Below, one piece after another: positions 1 through 12,000 of a stretch of 64,000 nucleotides of DNA. The number at the start of each line of letters is the position of its first letter. The first letter of the stretch is position 1. The position numbers are program-made. This DNA comes from Cyanobacteriota bacterium (lineage in GTDB: Bacteria; Cyanobacteriota; Cyanobacteriia; Thermostichales; Thermostichaceae), in contig JANRIL010000024.1 in assembly GCA_033764955.1 (NCBI GenBank), forward strand, positions 1 to 64,000. The letters are read 5' to 3'.

Positions 1-3000
1 TGTTCGTTCAATCTTTGACGCTGGATGTATCAGAGCTGTTTGAAGAACCAGAGCCGATTCAGTACCCTGCCAACCGCAAGCAGCAACTATCTAGGCAGGA
101 AGAAGGCTCCTTGGTTGGCGATGTCGATAAGGATGCACTGCTGAGTTGGATAGACCAGACAGTCATGGAACCACCGCTTAATGCGTTAGAGATGGCAGCG
201 CAACTACGGGATCTGGCGCATGGGGAGACTGTGGAGGAATGGTCAAGGGCGATCGCCCAGTATCTTCGTCAGTTCCCCTCAACTATTTGTATCTCTGATT
301 TGCAGCAGGCGTTAGCAATGCCTCTGGTGGAGCTATGGTTGGGTTTATTAATCGGCGGCTACTCCTTAACCCAGCACGGTGAATTTTATGATAATCAGAC
401 GCTCTGGATTATTAATTATGATGGAGAGGTATAGGCTGCATCATGGTGCCCAGCCTTGTCCTACGGTAAGAGGCGTTATCCGTTCAAGCAATACCCTAAT
501 GACCAACGCTGTCTTGCCAACGTCCAATCTTCCCAGCCTAACCATCAACGACTTCCTGATCACCAGTTGGCTACATGGCAAGAGCCACGACACCCAACTT
601 GCCTATCGTCGAGACATTGCCTGCTTCTGGACAATCCTAGAGCCAGTGCCACTCACCCAGATTGCTCTCCAAGATTTACAGCAGTTTGCCACTGCCCTAG
701 CAACACGGGGAGATGCCCCTGCGACCCAACGTCGTCGCCTCAACACGCTGAAATCATTGCTGACCTATGCCCATGAGTTGGGAGAACTTCTAAGCAATCC
801 CGGACGATTGCTCAAACCACCCATAATTTGCATAAGTCGATGAAATCAAGATGAAATCGTTTGAGATCGATCGACCGAACAACATCCTGAATTTTGGGTT
901 AATTAGCCACTGCAGAACGGTGATTTCACCCTGAATTCATAATTTTATGTTTTCTTCTAATTGAGGATTATTTGTACTAAACTCAATCTCACCTCATGGT
1001 TTACTAGGGCGTGTTTTAAAACCCTCAAAGCTAGAATGGAAATAGCCGTAATTCAAAGATAGCTAACAGACATTGGTCACACGCAATCCAATTTCACGCA
1101 AAGACTTAACCAATCACCAATGGCAACGACTCCACCGTGGTTATGCGATCGCTGCAATTCCCAGCAGAATCATCAAAACACCTAAGACAATTGCCAATGC
1201 TGAAGTTGTTCTGGTTTCTCTAAAATCTTCAAAAGTCATAGCTCCTCCCAAAATGTTTTGCTAGGTTGTTAGATCTTGAAAGAGAGACGCGATTAACCCT
1301 TGTCTGTACAAGAGTTATCTCTCCCTTGTGCTCCTTTGCCCTCTCTAAGCGTTGACCAGTTCAGGTGATAAGCGCTTCAACACCAGTCGTTCATGTTCCA
1401 CATGGATGTAGATTGTGTCGCCTTCGTGAAACTCGCCGCGTAGAATCGCTTTGGCAATCGGAGTTTCTAGTTCTCGCTGAACCGCCCGCTTCAGGGGACG
1501 AGCACCGTAAACGGGGTCATAACCGACTTGAACAATCCAATCGAGAGCCTCGTCGGAGATTTTGAGCAAGAGTTTACGCTCGCGCAGTCGCTCCTCTAAA
1601 TGCTGCACTTGTTGTTTGACAATTTCGCGCAACTCGTCCTTCCGCAAGCTGTGGAAGATAATGATTTCATCAATGCGGTTGAGGAATTCGGGGCGGAAAC
1701 TTTCTCGCACTGCTTCCATGACGCGATCGTGCATTTGTTCGTACTTGCTATCGTCTCCTGCCACATCCAAAATGTATGTTGAACCAATATTGCTGGTCAT
1801 AATCGCGATCGTATTTTTAAAATCTACTGTGCGTCCCTGAGAATCAGTGAGGCGACCATCATCCAGGATTTGCAGCAGGGCGTTGAATACATCAGGATGA
1901 GCTTTCTCAATTTCGTCAAACAGAATGACAGAATACGGTCGGCGGCGAATCGCTTCGGTGAGTTGTCCGCCTTCTTCATAACCCACGTAACCTGGAGGCG
2001 CACCGATGAGACGGGCAACGGCGTGTTTCTCCATGTATTCGGACATATCGATCCGCACCAGTGCAGCTTCGGTATCAAACAGATATGCCGCTAACGCTTT
2101 TGCCAGTTCTGTTTTTCCCACCCCGGTCGGGCCTAAGAAAATAAAGCTAGCAATGGGACGATTCGGGTCTGCCAACCCAGCACGGGAACGTTGAATTGCA
2201 TCAGCAGCAGCTCTTACAGCTTCGTCCTGACCAATCACACGTTGATGTAGCTCTTCTTCCAGATGCAAGAGTTTTTGCATTTCCGATTCAACCAGTCTGC
2301 TCAGCGGAATCCCCGTCCACTTGGAGATAATTTCGGCAATGTCAGCTTCGGTAACTTCTTCGCGCAACAGAGATTTACCGCTAGTCTGGATTTGAGCGAG
2401 TCGCGCTTCGGCTTCTTCTAGTTGTCGTTGTAGCTCAGTGAGTTTGCTGTATTTCAGTTCTGCTGCCCGGTTGAGGTCGTAATCGCGTTCGGCTTGCTGA
2501 ATTTCTACATTGACACGCTCAATCTCTTGTCTAATTTGGCGAATGCGATCGATGATTTGCTTCTCTGCCTGCCATTGAGCATTGAGGGCATCTTGGCGTT
2601 CTTTTAACTCTGCAAGCTCTCTCTCTAGGCGTTCTAACCGCTCTCTGGAAGCACTGTCTGTTTCTTTTTGCAGTGAAAGCCGCTCCATTTCCAGTTGCAG
2701 AATTTTGCGATCGATTTCGTCTAATTCTTCTGGTTTGGAAGTAATTTCCATTTTTAGTTTAGCCGCCGCTTCATCCACCAAATCAATCGCTTTGTCGGGT
2801 AGGAAGCGATCGCTAATATATCTTGCAGACAAAGTAGCTGCCGCAACTAACGCACTATCAGAAACCTTCACGCCATGGTGTAACTCGTAGCGCTCTTTCA
2901 AACCGCGCAGAATTGAGATGGTATCTTCCACATTGGGCTGATCGACATACACCTGCTGAAAACGACGTTCCAAAGCCGCATCTTTTTCAATGTACTTGCG

Positions 3001-9000: not shown

Positions 9001-12000
9001 TCTGTGGAAGTACCACCGTTTGGAGATGCACCTGCTTGTGAGTAGACCGCAGTGCCGATTTGCATCAGGGCTTGTTGAATTTCGTTGGTGAGCGACTTCA
9101 TGCGATCGAGGTTGTTCTGCTCAATTGCCTGACGCAAGTCTCGAATTAAGCCTTCCACGCGGGACTTGTCTGCTGGTGGCACTTTGTCGCCCAAATCCTG
9201 TAGTTTTTTCTCGGCTTGATAGGCAATAGAATCCGCCATGTTTTTGGTGTCGATTTGTTCGCGCCGCCTACGGTCTTCTTCCGCATTGCGATCGGCTTCT
9301 TTCACCATCCGCTCGACTTCAGATTTGTCGAGGGTGGATGCACCTGTGATGCTAATGGACTGTTCTTTACCTGTGGCTTTTTCTCTGGCAGTTGCTGACA
9401 GAATCCCGTTAGCATCAATGTCAAAGGTAACTTCGATCTGTGGCGTACCTCTGGGAGCGGTCGGAATCCCATCTAGTCGGAAGGTTCCCAGGCTCTTGTT
9501 GTCGGATGCCATTTCGCGTTCACCTTGCAGAACATGGATTTCTACGTTTGTTTGTCCATCAGCCGCCGTTGAGAACACCTCAGACTTCTTCACTGGGACA
9601 GTGGTATTGCGCGGAATAATCTTGCTCGTCACACCACCTAGAGTTTCAACACCCAGCGACAACGGCGTGACATCTAGGAGCAGTACGTCTTTTACCTCAC
9701 CCCCAAGCACACCCGCCTGAATCGCTGCACCCATTGCTACGACTTCATCTGGGTTGACACCCTGGTATGGGTCTTTGCCGATTATCTGCCGTACCAGTTG
9801 CTGAACAGCCGGTATCCGAGTTGCACCACCCACTAGGATTACTTCGTCAATATTTGCGGGACTCAGTTTAGCATCGCGCAGAGCTTGTTCGACGGGAATG
9901 CGGCTGCGATCGAACAAGTCGGCGCACATTTGCTCAAACTGTACCCGCGTTAAGGTCATATCTAGATGTTTCGGACCTTCCGGGGTTGCAGTAATAAAAG
10001 GTAAGTTAATGTTCGTCTGTGTTGCGCCTGACAGTTCAATTTTGGCTTTTTCTGCGACTTCGGTGAGGCGTTGCAGGGCTTGGTTGTCTTTACGGAGGTC
10101 GATGCCTTCGTTACGCTGGAATTCGGTTGCTAGCCAGTCTACGATTCTCTTATCAAAGTCATCACCGCCCAAGTGGGTGTCGCCACTGGTCGCTTTCACT
10201 TCAAACACACCATCACCCACTTCTAGGATAGACACGTCAAACGTTCCACCCCCTAAGTCAAAGACTAGGATGGTTTCATTGGTTTTCTTGTCAAGTCCGT
10301 AGGCGAGGGCAGCCGCCGTTGGCTCATTGATAATTCGCAGAACTTCAATCCCGGCAATTCTACCGGCATCTTTGGTCGCTTGCCGTTGAGAGTCATTGAA
10401 ATAGGCAGGGACGGTAATTACCGCTTGCCTCACCGGTTCTCCCAGATAGGTGCTGGCATCATCGATCAGCTTGCGGACTACCTCAGCCGAGATTTCTTCG
10501 GGTGAAAATTCCTGGTTCAGAGCGGGACAGTTTAGCTTGACGTTGCCATTACTGTCACGTACCACTTTGTAAGTAACTTGTTTTGCCTCTTGGGTGATTT
10601 CATCATACCTGCGCCCAATGAACCGCTTAACGGAATAATAGGTGTTTTCTGGGTTCATTACACCCTGGCGTTTGGCAATTTGCCCGACAAGTTTTTCGCC
10701 CTTCTTGGTGTAGGCAACCACAGACGGAGTTGTGCGACTGCCTTCTGTGTTCGCAATGACGATGGGTTGTCCGCCCTCCATTACAGCGATACAGGAGTTG
10801 GTCGTTCCTAAATCAATACCAACGATTTTTGCCATCGTTAACAATCTCCTTCAAAGATTGAGATAAAAAATTGAGAATCTGGATTCAGGACAAGTTGAAT
10901 AAATGGTATTGAGAAGGAAGAGGGAAGAATCTATACCTTGAACCTTCTGCCCTCTGGCTCCTTAGCACTCAGGATTTGGCTGCGGTTTGAATCGCGGCTA
11001 ACAATGAGCGGAGGTCGCAAGAGCCATCGTGGTACACACCGTTGATGAAAAAAGTCGGCGTGCCGTTGCCCCCGCTCTGAATTCCGCTTGTCATCTCCTG
11101 CTCTTAAGGGAGTGCTTGGGAAAACATTGCGTCACTGCCCTTGCCCGTTGCCCCCGTGCCCGTCACCTAAGTTTACTTTCACAACCTTGTTCTTATCTTC
11201 TTCAGCCTTGGGCAGCTTCAGCTTGAGAATGCCATCTTTGTATTCTGCTTGCACCTGATCGTGCTGGACACGGGTAGGCAACGGAACTACGCGCTGAAAC
11301 CTGCCATAGCGGAATTCGGTGCGGGTGATGCCTCTTTCTTCCGTTTTGATTTCTGACTTGCGCTCACCGGAAATAGATACTGCCTCTGGCGATACCTGCA
11401 CATCTAAGTCTTTGGGGTCTACACCGGGAACTTCTACCTTGAGATGAACTCCATCAGGGGTTTCTTCTATCTCCGCAGAGGGAATAAAGGCAATGCCTTC
11501 CTCTCCTCTACGACCTGTTGGTGCTATTTCATCAAACAAGCGGTTTAACTGCCGCTGCAAACTTTCAACTTCTCGGAAAGGTTCCCAACGAACGAGTGAC
11601 ATAATTTCAAGTCTCCTGATGATCTATACTTGGGTGTTTAGAATTCTGCATTAGGCTGGGTTTTGTCAGTCGCTGAAACAGCGTTGCTATACATGCCAGT
11701 TCTGAACTCTGTTGACACTGTAAAAAAGAAATCTAAGGGCTTTCTGAGGAAATTATGATGATTGGGGATTGGGACAAGGCAAAATTGGTAAAGGCGATTT
11801 TTTCCCTGTAGATGTCTCTCTAGAGCAAGCTAAGTGGAGCATGTTTTGAACGGCGATGTTGACCCCTCGGCTGTGCTGACGCATCGCTTGCCTCTAACTG
11901 AAGTAAAGCAGGGCTTTGAGATGTTCAAGCACAAGCAAGACCAATGCATCAAAGTGATGCTGCAGCCGGGCTAGTTGTGCGACGGCAGGTAACTTTGAAC

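Follow-up and report, generated by a model that had tools for sequence, protein, structure and literature searches.

A plasmid-borne cyanobacterial chaperone island with a predicted CbpM/DafA-type modulator and a candidate promoter box

The tLST is a mobile, IS-flanked island, near-identical across distant hosts and carried on plasmid or chromosome, that duplicates proteostasis functions of its host. Its genes include hsp20, a stand-alone clpG disaggregase gene, a thioredoxin-fold gene, hdeD together with a yfdX pair, and the K+ transporter gene kefB. In the E. coli CbpA-CbpM system, the gene of a type II J-protein overlaps that of its modulator. The operon of Thermus thermophilus, which we take to be ordered dnaK-grpE-dnaJ-dafA-clpB, has dnaK upstream; behind its type II dnaJ come the gene of a small modulator with a MerR fold and then clpB. 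In this species, DnaK, DnaJ and DafA form a trimeric complex, which together with ClpB is the main chaperone system (PMC3727329). The conjugative plasmid of Phenylobacterium zucineum HLK1 carries a heat-shock cluster with extra dnaK, clpB, hsp20, groESL, cbpM, yfdX, BON and Lon genes (PMC2529317). AvaC0143, a small heat-shock gene on plasmid C of A. variabilis, is 98% identical to Npun_F2984 and was considered probably horizontally acquired (PMC4152365); in the available text of that article this is a single-gene remark, with the cluster, regulator and box undescribed there. Position and family make it very likely that AvaC0143 corresponds to hsp20 in the donor island treated below.

The window, 64,000 nucleotides at the start of a 217-kb contig (C45) of a Thermostichaceae genome, opens with a chaperone block that circulates on soil-cyanobacterial plasmids and, judging from the alignments, recently reached this very distant cyanobacterium. 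A megablast search of positions 1-15000 against 72,556 records matched three plasmids alone, those of Nostoc sp. C057, Trichormus variabilis 0441 and T. variabilis ATCC 29413, as the initial annotation had reported along with plasmid carriage. Across 1138-11787, seven near-complete cyanobacterial copies share 94.5-95.5% identity (coverage and identity, respectively: T. variabilis ATCC 29413 plasmid C, 92.3% and 95.2%; Nostoc C057 plasmid, 90.0% and 94.9%; Phormidium LEGE 05292, 88.4% and 95.5%; a Cylindrospermum plasmid, 88.7% and 95.2%; N. minutum, 100% and 95.1%; genome G117, 93.9% and 94.5%; metagenome contig L183, 93.4% and 95.4%), while two further short contigs cover 26% and 42%. Donor matches start at 1138, within the donors' hdeD, where the block had been said to begin; its right end, previously set at 11650, lies at 11974. 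Identity to other cyanobacterial copies agrees with the earlier description, but the copies vary in gene content: a thioredoxin-like gene, one yfdX, one ADH, an aldo/keto reductase and the greater part of hdeD are present in other copies and missing from the window. The proposed recent acquisition from distant cyanobacteria is borne out by comparison of clpB and dnaK with those of five donors, which gives dS values of 0.08-0.17, and by the placement of the island DnaK inside the plasmid clade (support 100/100), separate from the host's own DnaK. Native paralogues are indeed far less similar (ClpB 66.9%; DnaK 69.9% and 60.0%). Among the 29 order relatives no near-identical copy was found, with chaperone-gene matches of at most 73%, and one of 400 class genomes sampled, G117, has a 96% dafA, as previously counted. 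The stated absence from other Thermostichales therefore applies to the 95% lineage but not to distant dafA genes, which 14 of the 29 relatives carry.

The nine ORFs are all minus-strand genes, arranged in the order originally described, with intact frames and ribosome-binding sites. The run is led by hsp20 (11132..11602; PF00011), 94% identical to the N. minutum copy, and continues with a module-clade DnaK (8931..10835; TIGR02350 above cut-off), a YflT-membrane hairpin-ChaB protein (7970..8743; PF11181 and PF06150), a triple-BON protein (7176..7847; three PF04972 stretches) without a signal stretch by hydropathy, and a TMEM175-family K+ channel (6443..7123, start possibly 7096; PF06736, E 3.7e-28), whose gene occurs in part of the island copies and has a dN/dS of 0.54-0.85. 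There follow a YfdX-family protein (5484..6371; PF10938, E 1.2e-35), a 335-aa type II DnaJ (4325..5332; DnaJ and DnaJ_C domains) that has the HPD motif and no zinc finger (CxxCxGxG) and is merely 39% identical to the native type II DnaJ, a 105-aa MerR_2-family ORF (4011..4328) overlapping dnaJ by 4 bp, and an intact 873-aa ClpB (1345..3966) with both Walker A and Walker B motifs. The last scores 1409.5 bits on TIGR03346 (cut-off 1232.1) and 819.6 on the ClpG model, below its cut-off of 1900. Values of dN/dS, 0.11-0.26 for clpB, dnaK and dnaJ (ClpB 0.16-0.18; DnaK 0.11-0.26), suggest purifying selection, the comparison being with donors and not of selection within the present host. Between dnaK and hsp20, the minus-strand segment 10916..11088 holds the 3′ remnant and flank of a DsbA-like thioredoxin gene, from which about 430-470 bp are deleted, and donor alignments split at 11088.

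In effect, the island may work like tLST without being a member of it. The two have in common their mobility, near-identity between distant hosts, location on plasmids or chromosomes, flanking IS elements and extra copies of proteostasis genes, and each encodes a K+ transporter. The initial annotation had called it a cyanobacterial counterpart, which suits the functional likeness (yfdX pair, hdeD, thioredoxin-like gene, hsp20, disaggregase) but not membership, given ClpB together with DnaK-DnaJ in place of ClpG. TMEM175 stands where tLST has KefB, the chaperone genes are of cyanobacterial stock, and a candidate two-component regulator with its own box is particular to the island; no match to tLST was found at the DNA level. 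The island YfdX has no hydrophobic signal stretch (N-terminal hydropathy maximum 0.16) and is just 31% identical to tLST YfdX2, 37% to a sphingomonad plasmid YfdX and 34% to that of P. zucineum HLK1, whose alphaproteobacterial cluster also differs in having grpE and sigma-32 and in gene order. In contrast to Thermus, neither the block nor the annotated donor stretches contain grpE, cargo genes separate dnaK from dnaJ, and the system, known here from its genes, is accessory. The cargo beyond the chaperones would fit general or drying stress as much as heat.

The 105-aa ORF had been labelled a MerR/HspR-type regulator, an assignment we replace with that of a predicted CbpM/DafA-type co-chaperone modulator because of its sequence, fold, gene position and the missing HAIR sites. 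By profile, its best PDB match is Thermus DafA (9dvi, E 5.6e-10), followed by E. coli CbpM (3ucs, E 1.3e-3). The predicted structure (pLDDT 90) has CbpM as its best fold match (TM 0.73, rmsd 1.6; Z 11.5 over 92 residues, with a runner-up at 9.2 over 72), and DafA ranks 28th (Z 7.6). Identity to E. coli CbpM is about 25%, and the ORF falls below both curated cut-offs (CbpM 26.8 of 138; HspR 24.4 of 105); unlike CbpM, it is encoded within a chaperone operon that a mobile element carries. In the RLRxEL motif of CbpM the acidic residue has a role in J-domain binding, and an Asp at this position is invariant in 67 homologues. That the protein is instead an HspR-like repressor of its operon, as in actinobacterial dnaK-grpE-dnaJ-hspR operons, we regard as very unlikely: its fold is MerR-like, a place behind dnaJ suits either class, and the HspR model matches 67 of 67 homologues (CbpM model, 63 of 67), but these matches are weak (best E 1.3e-9), its wing falls 6 residues short of that in SkgA, a MerR protein that binds DNA, and the island contains no HAIR-like site at three or fewer mismatches. 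No CIRCE was found in the island either, nor a K-box in the promoter regions. Moreover, what is conserved at the promoter is a direct repeat whose distribution follows that of a response regulator, and 68 of 401 genomes have dafA against 13 for the box, many dafA genomes having no box.

This promoter element is a candidate activator box ahead of hsp20 (11717..11749, minus strand), with the direct repeat CCTCAG-N5-CCTTAG at 11733-11749 and a -10-like TACAGT 10 nt beyond it. It is kept where the surrounding flanks fail to align (16 pattern matches in 11 of 91 loci), and 11733-11749 is the sole exact site in the host genome. Across 401 genomes the exact box has 21 sites in 13 genomes (reversed control, 1 site). 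Orthologues of one multidomain response regulator (at least 60% identity; next match 48%) occur in ten genomes, nine with an exact box and the tenth with a one-mismatch box adjoining the regulator, so that all ten bear the box against four of 391 regulator-free genomes. Since the pattern was derived from six of the ten, four genomes alone are independent tests; TAnnnT, which lay outside the search pattern, follows 10 nt downstream at 17 of 17 sites in the nine regulator-bearing genomes with an exact box. The regulator is also present, at 58%, on the three plasmids matched above. The box may thus mark a candidate stress regulon, and it looks as though the island bears its own undescribed on-switch, likely a two-component system. 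A search of the 89%-complete host genome did not find the regulator (best matches 51% over the first 235 residues, and 35-46% for one full-length paralogue); its expected place would be the assembly gap between contigs C13 and C45.

Behind the island there appears to be an older module, hsp20-dnaK-chaB-dnaJ-dafA-(clpB), of which the island would be a cargo-expanded, plasmid-borne branch. In 20 of 20 loci dafA is directly 3′ of type II dnaJ, with dnaK no more than 5 kb away in ten and a chaB orthologue at 13. Own-family genomes have a YflT-ChaB orthologue (60-64%) directly 5′ of dnaJ-dafA, which would make this gene a marker of the module, and in many members of the host's family a reduced form of the core seems to be present already. 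The DnaK tree supports the module clade at 99/97 and the mobile clade at 100/100. PsiE- and DegP-family genes, shared with tLST, adjoin some chromosomal versions of the module.

Taken together, we consider it probable that the locus represents the chaperone operon within a more extensive stress island carried on soil-cyanobacterial plasmids, which on T. variabilis plasmid C spans about 46 kb, and that it is regulator-driven, modulator-braked and integrated here by a single crossover. The island would have grown from the older module by insertion of yfdX, BON, TMEM175, hdeD and redox genes. Co-occurrence and promoter geometry suggest that a REC-wHTH-Hpt-REC-REC regulator receives its phosphate from a PAS histidine kinase; this regulator would bind CCTCAG-N5-CCTTAG in place of a -35 and activate the chaperone operon, groESL and other stress genes. 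Following established chaperone biochemistry, Hsp20 would hold damaged proteins, and DnaK with type II DnaJ would pass them to ClpB for disaggregation, nucleotide exchange presumably falling to the host's single GrpE. The fold and position of the CbpM/DafA-type protein, co-made with DnaJ, suggest that it attaches to DnaJ or to the DnaK-DnaJ pair and holds the additional machinery idle until stress sets in.

The surroundings are foreign as well. The host octamer GGGATCCC (4915 genome sites, 1.29/kb) is absent from 1-14926, where 19.3 are expected, and the donor-type octamer GCGATCGC occurs 8 times against 0.43 expected, in keeping with the initial annotation. Such a gap marks foreign DNA without being unique, because C25 as a whole and C11:1-16275 are equally GGGATCCC-free. 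On the left, a hypothetical plus-strand gene of cyanobacterial plasmid type, open at the contig start (3..434), contains a donor-type octamer at 249 and has no Pfam match; tblastn matches it in 67 plasmid records. All ten genera that the tally names are cyanobacterial, and identity is about 36% in the best 12 rows. The previously noted integrase fragment is a plus-strand tyrosine-recombinase remnant (379..843) with an N-terminal SAM-like domain alone (Phage_int_SAM_1, E 6.5e-8, residues 59-131), the catalytic domain missing downstream. A remnant insertion-sequence end (1004..1137, plus strand), which from the look of its end and first codons we take to be IS5-family, is fused to the cut hdeD, of which 32 5′ codons remain (1138..1239, minus strand). 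It has no Pfam match and one copy in the host; contigs of three soil-type runs cover about 1004-1134 at a depth above the flank.

On the right, a plus-strand piece joins a PfpI-family remnant (11785-11833) to a zinc alcohol dehydrogenase 3′ end (11834-11974); like the block itself, both stem from this island family (98% and 94% DNA identity to contig L113, G348:C225). An attC-like site (11973..12058, minus strand) lacks its final bases at this junction; an nhmmer profile finds 31 related sites in the host. The restriction-modification pair noted earlier is present (12058..14469, minus strand; PF09194, PF01555), comprising a BsoBI-family endonuclease (12058-13026) and an N4/N6 methyltransferase (13036-14469), but it is no incidental neighbour: a second copy, 88% identical and in the same orientation, lies at C13:23337-25911, and the two bracket the element. 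Host octamers resume from 14927, and an ABC-transporter gene (14601..16595, minus strand; 60-73% orthologues in 16 relatives) is the first host-type DNA. The element seems to go on at the end of C13, where 26321-28180 is 91.6% identical to the G117 island kinase and the remaining kinase frame is open (about 0.13 synonymous versus 0.04 non-synonymous changes per site), beside a broken receiver gene. Positions 11834-11974 match L113:2749-2609, and C13:25917-26144 matches L113:2582-2355; the pieces, 26 bp apart in L113, here flank two direct-repeat cassettes. Because donor-adjacent pieces lie outside direct-repeat cassettes, we infer that a circle with one R-M allele recombined with the host allele in a single crossover, a whole plasmid circle being the most likely mode of entry, for which the plasmid-type gene at the start of the contig also speaks. 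The candidate site is the longest identical run between the copies, 44 bp at 14442..14485; in 15 tests, affinity switches across it with two of five outside alleles, a pair from a single genus, and a free breakpoint scan found no switch (p 0.16-0.41). A search of metagenome contigs did not recover the junction pattern, which leaves the joins dependent on a single assembly, and no empty site was found among the relatives compared.

These joins could be an assembly artefact in which paths were swapped, within the shared stretch, between the chromosome and a free plasmid, whether the host's own or one from a different cyanobacterium in the same sample, each with an R-M allele. The junctions do not separate this from a real crossover, since both give the same two; the assembly is incomplete (48 contigs, 89%), each of the two foreign pieces sits at the end of a contig, the candidate switch is located within the single longest identical run, and signs of amelioration are absent (a single donor octamer is lost and one or two are gained, with host octamers still lacking). 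Common assemblers, however, finish with a k-mer of 55 or more, and 44 bp is shorter than this and than a read; contamination is estimated at 0.23%, and the 217-kb contig is host-type along its whole length outside the island, matching the continuity with host genes noted before. The host's other octamer-free cassette regions and its 31 attC-like sites indicate that uptake of foreign DNA is usual for it, and we judge an artefact improbable. Still less credible are separate insertions of the C45 and C13 pieces, each beside an independently acquired cassette, which would leave the 26-bp neighbourhood in the relative unexplained, even though the C13-C45 gap is unbridged, kinase and operon are oppositely oriented in relatives L014 and L183, and the cassette family is mobile (12 of 301 genomes).

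After integration by the favoured single crossover, several cargo genes would have been lost or broken, leaving the nine ORFs intact. An island that is real and integrated but silent or decaying has a modest chance, because the insertion sequence cutting hdeD and downstream genes may have removed the cognate regulator. That regulator is absent from the host matches, and hdeD, PfpI, ADH, the thioredoxin-like gene and the receiver gene on C13 are all broken. Against this stand the nine ORFs with their ribosome-binding sites, the intact box and -10, the open kinase remainder with its excess of synonymous change, and a genome 89% complete with a gap at the regulator's expected place. In the DnaK tree the window sits on a somewhat longer branch than the donors do, a point in favour of the silent or decaying reading.

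The window covers 64 kb at the start of contig C45 (217.6 kb) in a 3.8-Mb assembly that is 89% complete, and near its start it carries a real and recent acquisition, a variant of an already known type of mobile stress island. Nine co-directional ORFs on the minus strand make up this island, encoding Hsp20, DnaK, a YflT-ChaB protein, a triple-BON protein, TMEM175, YfdX, DnaJ, a 105-aa MerR_2 protein, and ClpB. We compared positions 1138-11787 with seven other copies (from two annotated conjugative plasmids, Phormidium, a Cylindrospermum plasmid, N. minutum, genome G117, and one metagenome contig, a third conjugative plasmid being matched as well) and found 94.5-95.5% identity across 88-100% of the length, whereas the native paralogues of the host are 67% (ClpB) and 70% (DnaK) identical. 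The octamer typical of the host is missing from 1-14926 (0 seen, 19.3 expected), while that of the donors occurs 8 times against an expected 0.43, and no amelioration of the island toward the host octamer is seen. The initial annotation is thus borne out on near-identity to distant cyanobacterial copies, on octamer content, and on carriage by conjugative plasmids, the signs of mobility being three conjugative plasmids, one further plasmid record, and IS and integrase remnants. For clpB and dnaK, dS to the donors is 0.08-0.17, slightly higher than most donor-donor values, with dN/dS of 0.11-0.26. Charged-versus-polar bias does not separate island ClpB from native ClpB, the IS remnant has no Pfam match, window positions 1-1140 have no DNA match among plasmids, and the relaxase and ParM of plasmid C of T. 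variabilis ATCC 29413 have no match anywhere in the host assembly.

T. variabilis ATCC 29413 is a laboratory strain, in which the island can be tested directly. On its plasmid C the same run is embedded in approximately 46 kb of stress genes. It is preceded by SRPBCC and zinc-ADH genes, flavodoxin, two response regulators, gnd-zwf, NADH oxidase, and groES-groEL, itself reads hsp20-thioredoxin-dnaK-chaB-BON-reductase-yfdX-yfdX-dnaJ-cbpM-clpB-hdeD, and is followed by a general stress protein and a xanthine-dehydrogenase-like operon. The cargo among the chaperone genes differs between copies; in the window, one yfdX, the reductase, and one ADH are missing, as they are in some relatives, and little is left of the thioredoxin-like gene or of hdeD, the latter cut by an IS-like end at 1138. 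By established chaperone biochemistry, Hsp20, DnaK-DnaJ, and ClpB would act in sequence to hold and disaggregate proteins, with GrpE required. While the Thermus operon follows the order dnaK-grpE-dnaJ-dafA-clpB, no grpE lies in the island and none is annotated in the donor stretches, the single host grpE being on another contig (C12:5875-6351). A plasmid cluster of P. zucineum, an alphaproteobacterial analogue, also has grpE, together with sigma-32. Because the cargo includes redox, PfpI, Usp, and BON genes, a general stress role is suggested. Chaperone sets that can be transferred in this way could be useful for making cultured cyanobacteria hardier.

The island can be regarded as a cyanobacterial counterpart, made of different parts, of the proteobacterial heat-tolerance island (tLST), whose core is dna-hsp20-clpG with a stand-alone ClpG disaggregase and whose copies share more than 80% DNA conservation (PMC8290217). 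Like tLST, the island is mobile, occurs on plasmid or chromosome, and has mobile-element remnants alongside. Its disaggregase, in contrast, is ClpB, as had been proposed earlier: the protein scores 1409.5 bits with the ClpB model (cut-off 1232.1) and 819.6 and 813.8 bits with the ClpG and ClpK models (cut-off 1900). Megablast with the island finds only the three cyanobacterial plasmids in a collection that includes tLST plasmids, and island YfdX is 31% identical to tLST YfdX2. The envelope module of tLST is yfdX1-yfdX2-hdeD; the donors have a yfdX pair and hdeD, split by dnaJ-cbpM-clpB, and the window retains one yfdX and an hdeD remnant. Membership of tLST also takes in heat, chlorine, or pressure tolerance. 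Judged by its genes, the island would work like tLST but is not a member, since it has ClpB instead of ClpG and a YfdX only 31% identical. The sole earlier mention found of any part of it is that the hsp20 of plasmid C was probably horizontally acquired (PMC4152365). A CbpM has been named, without context, as a lineage-specific thermotolerance candidate in hot-spring Leptolyngbya (PMC13598712), and the text consulted of another study, which explains the extra groESL1.2 by duplication and loss, yielded no passage on plasmid C (PMC5381637). No description of the cluster, or of the promoter box and regulator considered below, was found in a full-text literature search covering few subscription journals and, for most matches, titles and the opening of abstracts.

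The 105-aa protein (4011..4328, minus strand) had been labelled a MerR/HspR-type regulator, a name we replace because the protein scores far below the HspR cut-off of NCBIfam (24.4 bits, cut-off 105), no match to the HAIR operator lies in 1-15000, its predicted fold resembles CbpM, and DafA and CbpM are its closest solved relatives by sequence. Thermus DafA is matched at E 4e-4 by single sequence and 5.6e-10 by profile, and CbpM at 0.12 and 1.3e-3, respectively. The predicted structure (pLDDT 90) has CbpM as its best fold (TM 0.73, rmsd 1.6), while most full MerR regulators superpose at rmsd of approximately 9. Against CbpM 3ucs the model gives Z 11.5 (rmsd 1.8, 92 residues), with the next match at Z 9.2 over 72 residues and DNA-binding MerR proteins at Z of at most 9.2 over 62-89 residues; this margin is modest because the protein is mostly helical, and DafA comes well down the fold ranking (Z 7.6). 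Compared with a DNA-binding MerR protein, the wing is shortened. The HspR model matches all 67 homologues weakly, and the score with the NCBIfam CbpM model, a strict enterobacterial-type definition, is also below cut-off (26.8 bits, cut-off 138). Across the window the HAIR consensus, from which cyanobacterial operators could differ, has 4 matches at 3 mismatches against 2.9 expected. In the window the gene shares 4 bp with that of a zinc-finger-less (type II) DnaJ, and this arrangement recurs in all 20 loci compared. No viral contig encodes the protein. From sequence and predicted structure, we identify the protein as a putative CbpM/DafA-like modulator of a cyanobacterial subfamily rather than HspR. 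Thermus DafA assembles a DnaK3-DnaJ3-DafA3 complex from which substrate expels it (PMC3727329). By analogy, we infer that the modulator would similarly park the DnaK-DnaJ machine; a predicted complex between it and the N-terminal part of DnaJ gave no answer (0.03; mark 0.32) and counts neither way. Such a modulator would extend DafA/CbpM-type control of DnaJ to photosynthetic bacteria.

Beneath the mobile island lies an older module. Of 401 class genomes, 68 encode homologues of the modulator, including 13 of 22 in the family of the host and one of seven in the other family of the same order, so that the reported absence from other Thermostichales holds for the 95% lineage and fails for the module, of which order relatives carry distant dafA homologues. 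No native dafA was found in the host assembly. Among the 20 loci compared (the best matches plus three relatives of the host), dnaK lies within 5 kb of dnaJ-dafA in 10, a chaB orthologue is present in 13, and an intact clpB follows directly in 3, with identities outside the mobile lineage of 52-88%. In both own-family loci compared, chaB-dnaJ-dafA sits within DNA rich in the host-type octamer, which argues for long residence, and most genomes of that own-family genus have a chaB orthologue of at least 60% identity. In a DnaK tree of 37 rows, the module DnaKs form one clade (99/97), in which one long row is unsure and the mobile copies are nested as a clade (100/100), while the DnaK native to the host falls among those of its order (100/97). 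Six of 22 organism-named homologues have "therm" in the name, and about five more named carriers are presumably hot-spring strains, an apparent enrichment that rests on names. A conserved protein of approximately 450 aa without a Pfam match stands behind dafA or clpB in chromosomal modules (L058:13305-14657, L065:8043-9386, L121:2916-4274), and PsiE, DUF1614, PRC-barrel, and DegP genes are found beside it. In one locus of the host's order (L072, G029:C89), a divergent single run comprises dnaJ-dafA, an M20 peptidase, a GCS2 ligase, dnaK, DegP, hsp20, and Lon. In two further chromosomal modules (L059, L068), what is left of clpB is 28 codons long, or dnaJ is shortened and FtsH present as a fragment, which suggests repeated decay.

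Upstream of hsp20, at 11733-11749, the direct repeat CCTCAG-N5-CCTTAG is conserved where the flanks cease to align, and it is the only exact copy of this box in the host genome. Sixteen occurrences were found in 11 of 91 loci examined, preceding hsp20, groES, an NADH oxidase gene, and a response regulator, and the 401 genomes hold 21 exact boxes in 13 genomes, with one site for a reversed control. A regulator of REC-wHTH-Hpt-REC-REC architecture has orthologues of at least 60% identity in 10 of the 401 (next match, 48%). An exact box is present in nine of these ten, and in the tenth a box with one mismatch lies next to the regulator, a pairing in which four genomes are independent, as the pattern was defined partly from the other six, and kin genomes are not independent. 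At all 17 sites in the nine genomes, the hexamer TAnnnT, which the pattern does not demand, lies exactly 10 nt downstream. Among the 391 genomes without the regulator, four have an exact box: the window host and G212, both with the hexamer, and two without it. The regulator was not found in the 89%-complete host assembly; on the three conjugative plasmids it is 58% identical. The box stands before hsp20, PfpI, and ADH/SRPBCC genes, a universal stress protein gene, and the gene for the regulator, among others. A direct repeat in place of a -35 element is compatible with a winged-helix activator, and the 11-bp period at this position fits binding by one, through which the operon would be activated. 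A generic sigma-70 scan returned fewer sites than shuffled sequence and missed the box promoter, which has no -35 element. With the standard consensus motifs, no CIRCE element occurs in the window within 3 mismatches, and K-box-like matches in the island fall only inside clpB, with none in promoter regions. Together, box and regulator define a candidate stress regulon distinct from the two cyanobacterial heat-shock circuits known so far. Such a regulon can exist without chaperones, since one locus (L113, G348:C225) has four boxes, the regulator, a multi-PAS kinase, TMEM175, PfpI, and ADH, with no chaperone operon in 20 kb and no dafA match in the genome. A variant box with another spacer and no TAnnnT precedes a stand-alone receiver gene in three genomes (L116, L121, L122) and possibly represents another promoter class or a repressed site.

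How the island may have reached the chromosome is suggested by a second piece at the end of another contig (C13:22407-28180). This piece contains a restriction-modification (R-M) cassette (copy B), a receiver-domain gene that is broken, and 572 codons from the 3′ part of the multi-PAS kinase gene, which the contig end truncates; it has no host octamer and three donor octamers. Copy B is 88% identical to, and in the same orientation as, copy A beside the island (12058..14469), and the 1860 bp beyond it to the end of C13 are 91.6% identical to the island kinase of G117. The end of the zinc ADH gene (11834-11974, here X) and C13:25917-26144 (Y) are each 94% identical to stretches of G348:C225, where they are neighbours 26 bp apart. 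In the host, the order is fur, cassette B, Y, kinase piece, gap, plasmid gene (the first ORF of C45, a cyanobacterial plasmid protein), integrase and IS remnants, island, X, cassette A, and ABC gene. Since X and Y now flank two R-M cassettes, a circle with one R-M allele between X and Y would have entered by a single crossover with a chromosome bearing the other allele. Across the genome, CYCGRG, the presumed site of the cassette, is depleted: there are 360 copies where a Markov count, perhaps raised by the abundant octamer, predicts 2018. This agrees with long residence of a host allele.

The same two junctions would be produced by a reciprocal assembly swap between the cassettes, and the exact junction pattern is found in 0 metagenome contigs, nor is an empty site found among relatives. 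At most 44 consecutive bp (14442-14485) are identical between the copies, and usual final assembler k-mers exceed this length, so a swap is unlikely. Affinity switches across this run with two of five references, both of one genus (p 0.006 and 0.001; 15 tests), while a free breakpoint scan is not significant with any of the five. Downstream neighbours of the ABC gene in 16 relatives do not include fur or map next to the island. No public run contains half of the stretch; 21 contain 8-10% of its words, and the four such runs inspected have pieces over the island, none over host genes, and no bridged junction, and are silent on habitat and joins. Under single-crossover entry, the bracket of two R-M cassettes would be a rare readable trace of a plasmid crossing a deep phylogenetic gap. 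The ABC transporter itself (14601-16595) has ABC_membrane_2 and SbmA/BacA-like domains, and its neighbours vary among relatives.

Taken jointly, these features may reflect an undescribed regulon for heat or general stress, the third in cyanobacteria after HrcA/CIRCE and the K-box, a reading to which we give a little less than an even chance. The multi-PAS kinase and the REC-wHTH-Hpt-REC-REC activator, acting on CCTCAG-N5-CCTTAG, would drive a DafA-gated DnaK-DnaJ-ClpB machine, groESL, and redox genes. The system would be old and chromosomal in scattered, often hot-spring lineages, mobilised as a portable plasmid stress-tolerance island in soil cyanobacteria, and able to enter chromosomes by recombination through a common R-M cassette, here bringing dnaJ-dafA back to a lineage in whose relatives an ancient copy persists. 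What is observed comprises the gene content, identity, intact frames, box, and flanking structure of the island, and this analysis adds the candidate regulon, the modulator, and the integration trace.

Other stretches of possibly foreign DNA occur in the host. It has 31 related attC-like sites (on C9, C11, C12, C27, and C38, for example), and the window copy beside the R-M pair is truncated and has no clean hairpin fold. Octamer-free contig-end regions resembling cassette arrays occur at C11:1-16275, the start of C9, and the end of C12. A 17-kb contig (C25, L019) lacks the host octamer throughout, carries sulfatase and glycosyl hydrolase 108 genes, and has no plasmid match; it may have been co-binned or belong to the gap. 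Neither C11:1-17000 nor C25 is counted as part of the element, since both lack a plasmid match and any match of at least 80% to ten island loci. Two CRISPR-Cas loci of the host, judged from the start of their translations, lie at C11:17854-28000 (L017-L018) and on C42 (L025), and C8 (L022) carries phage- or plasmid-like genes for a CI-type repressor, SRAP, an AAA_25 protein, and a UvrD helicase.
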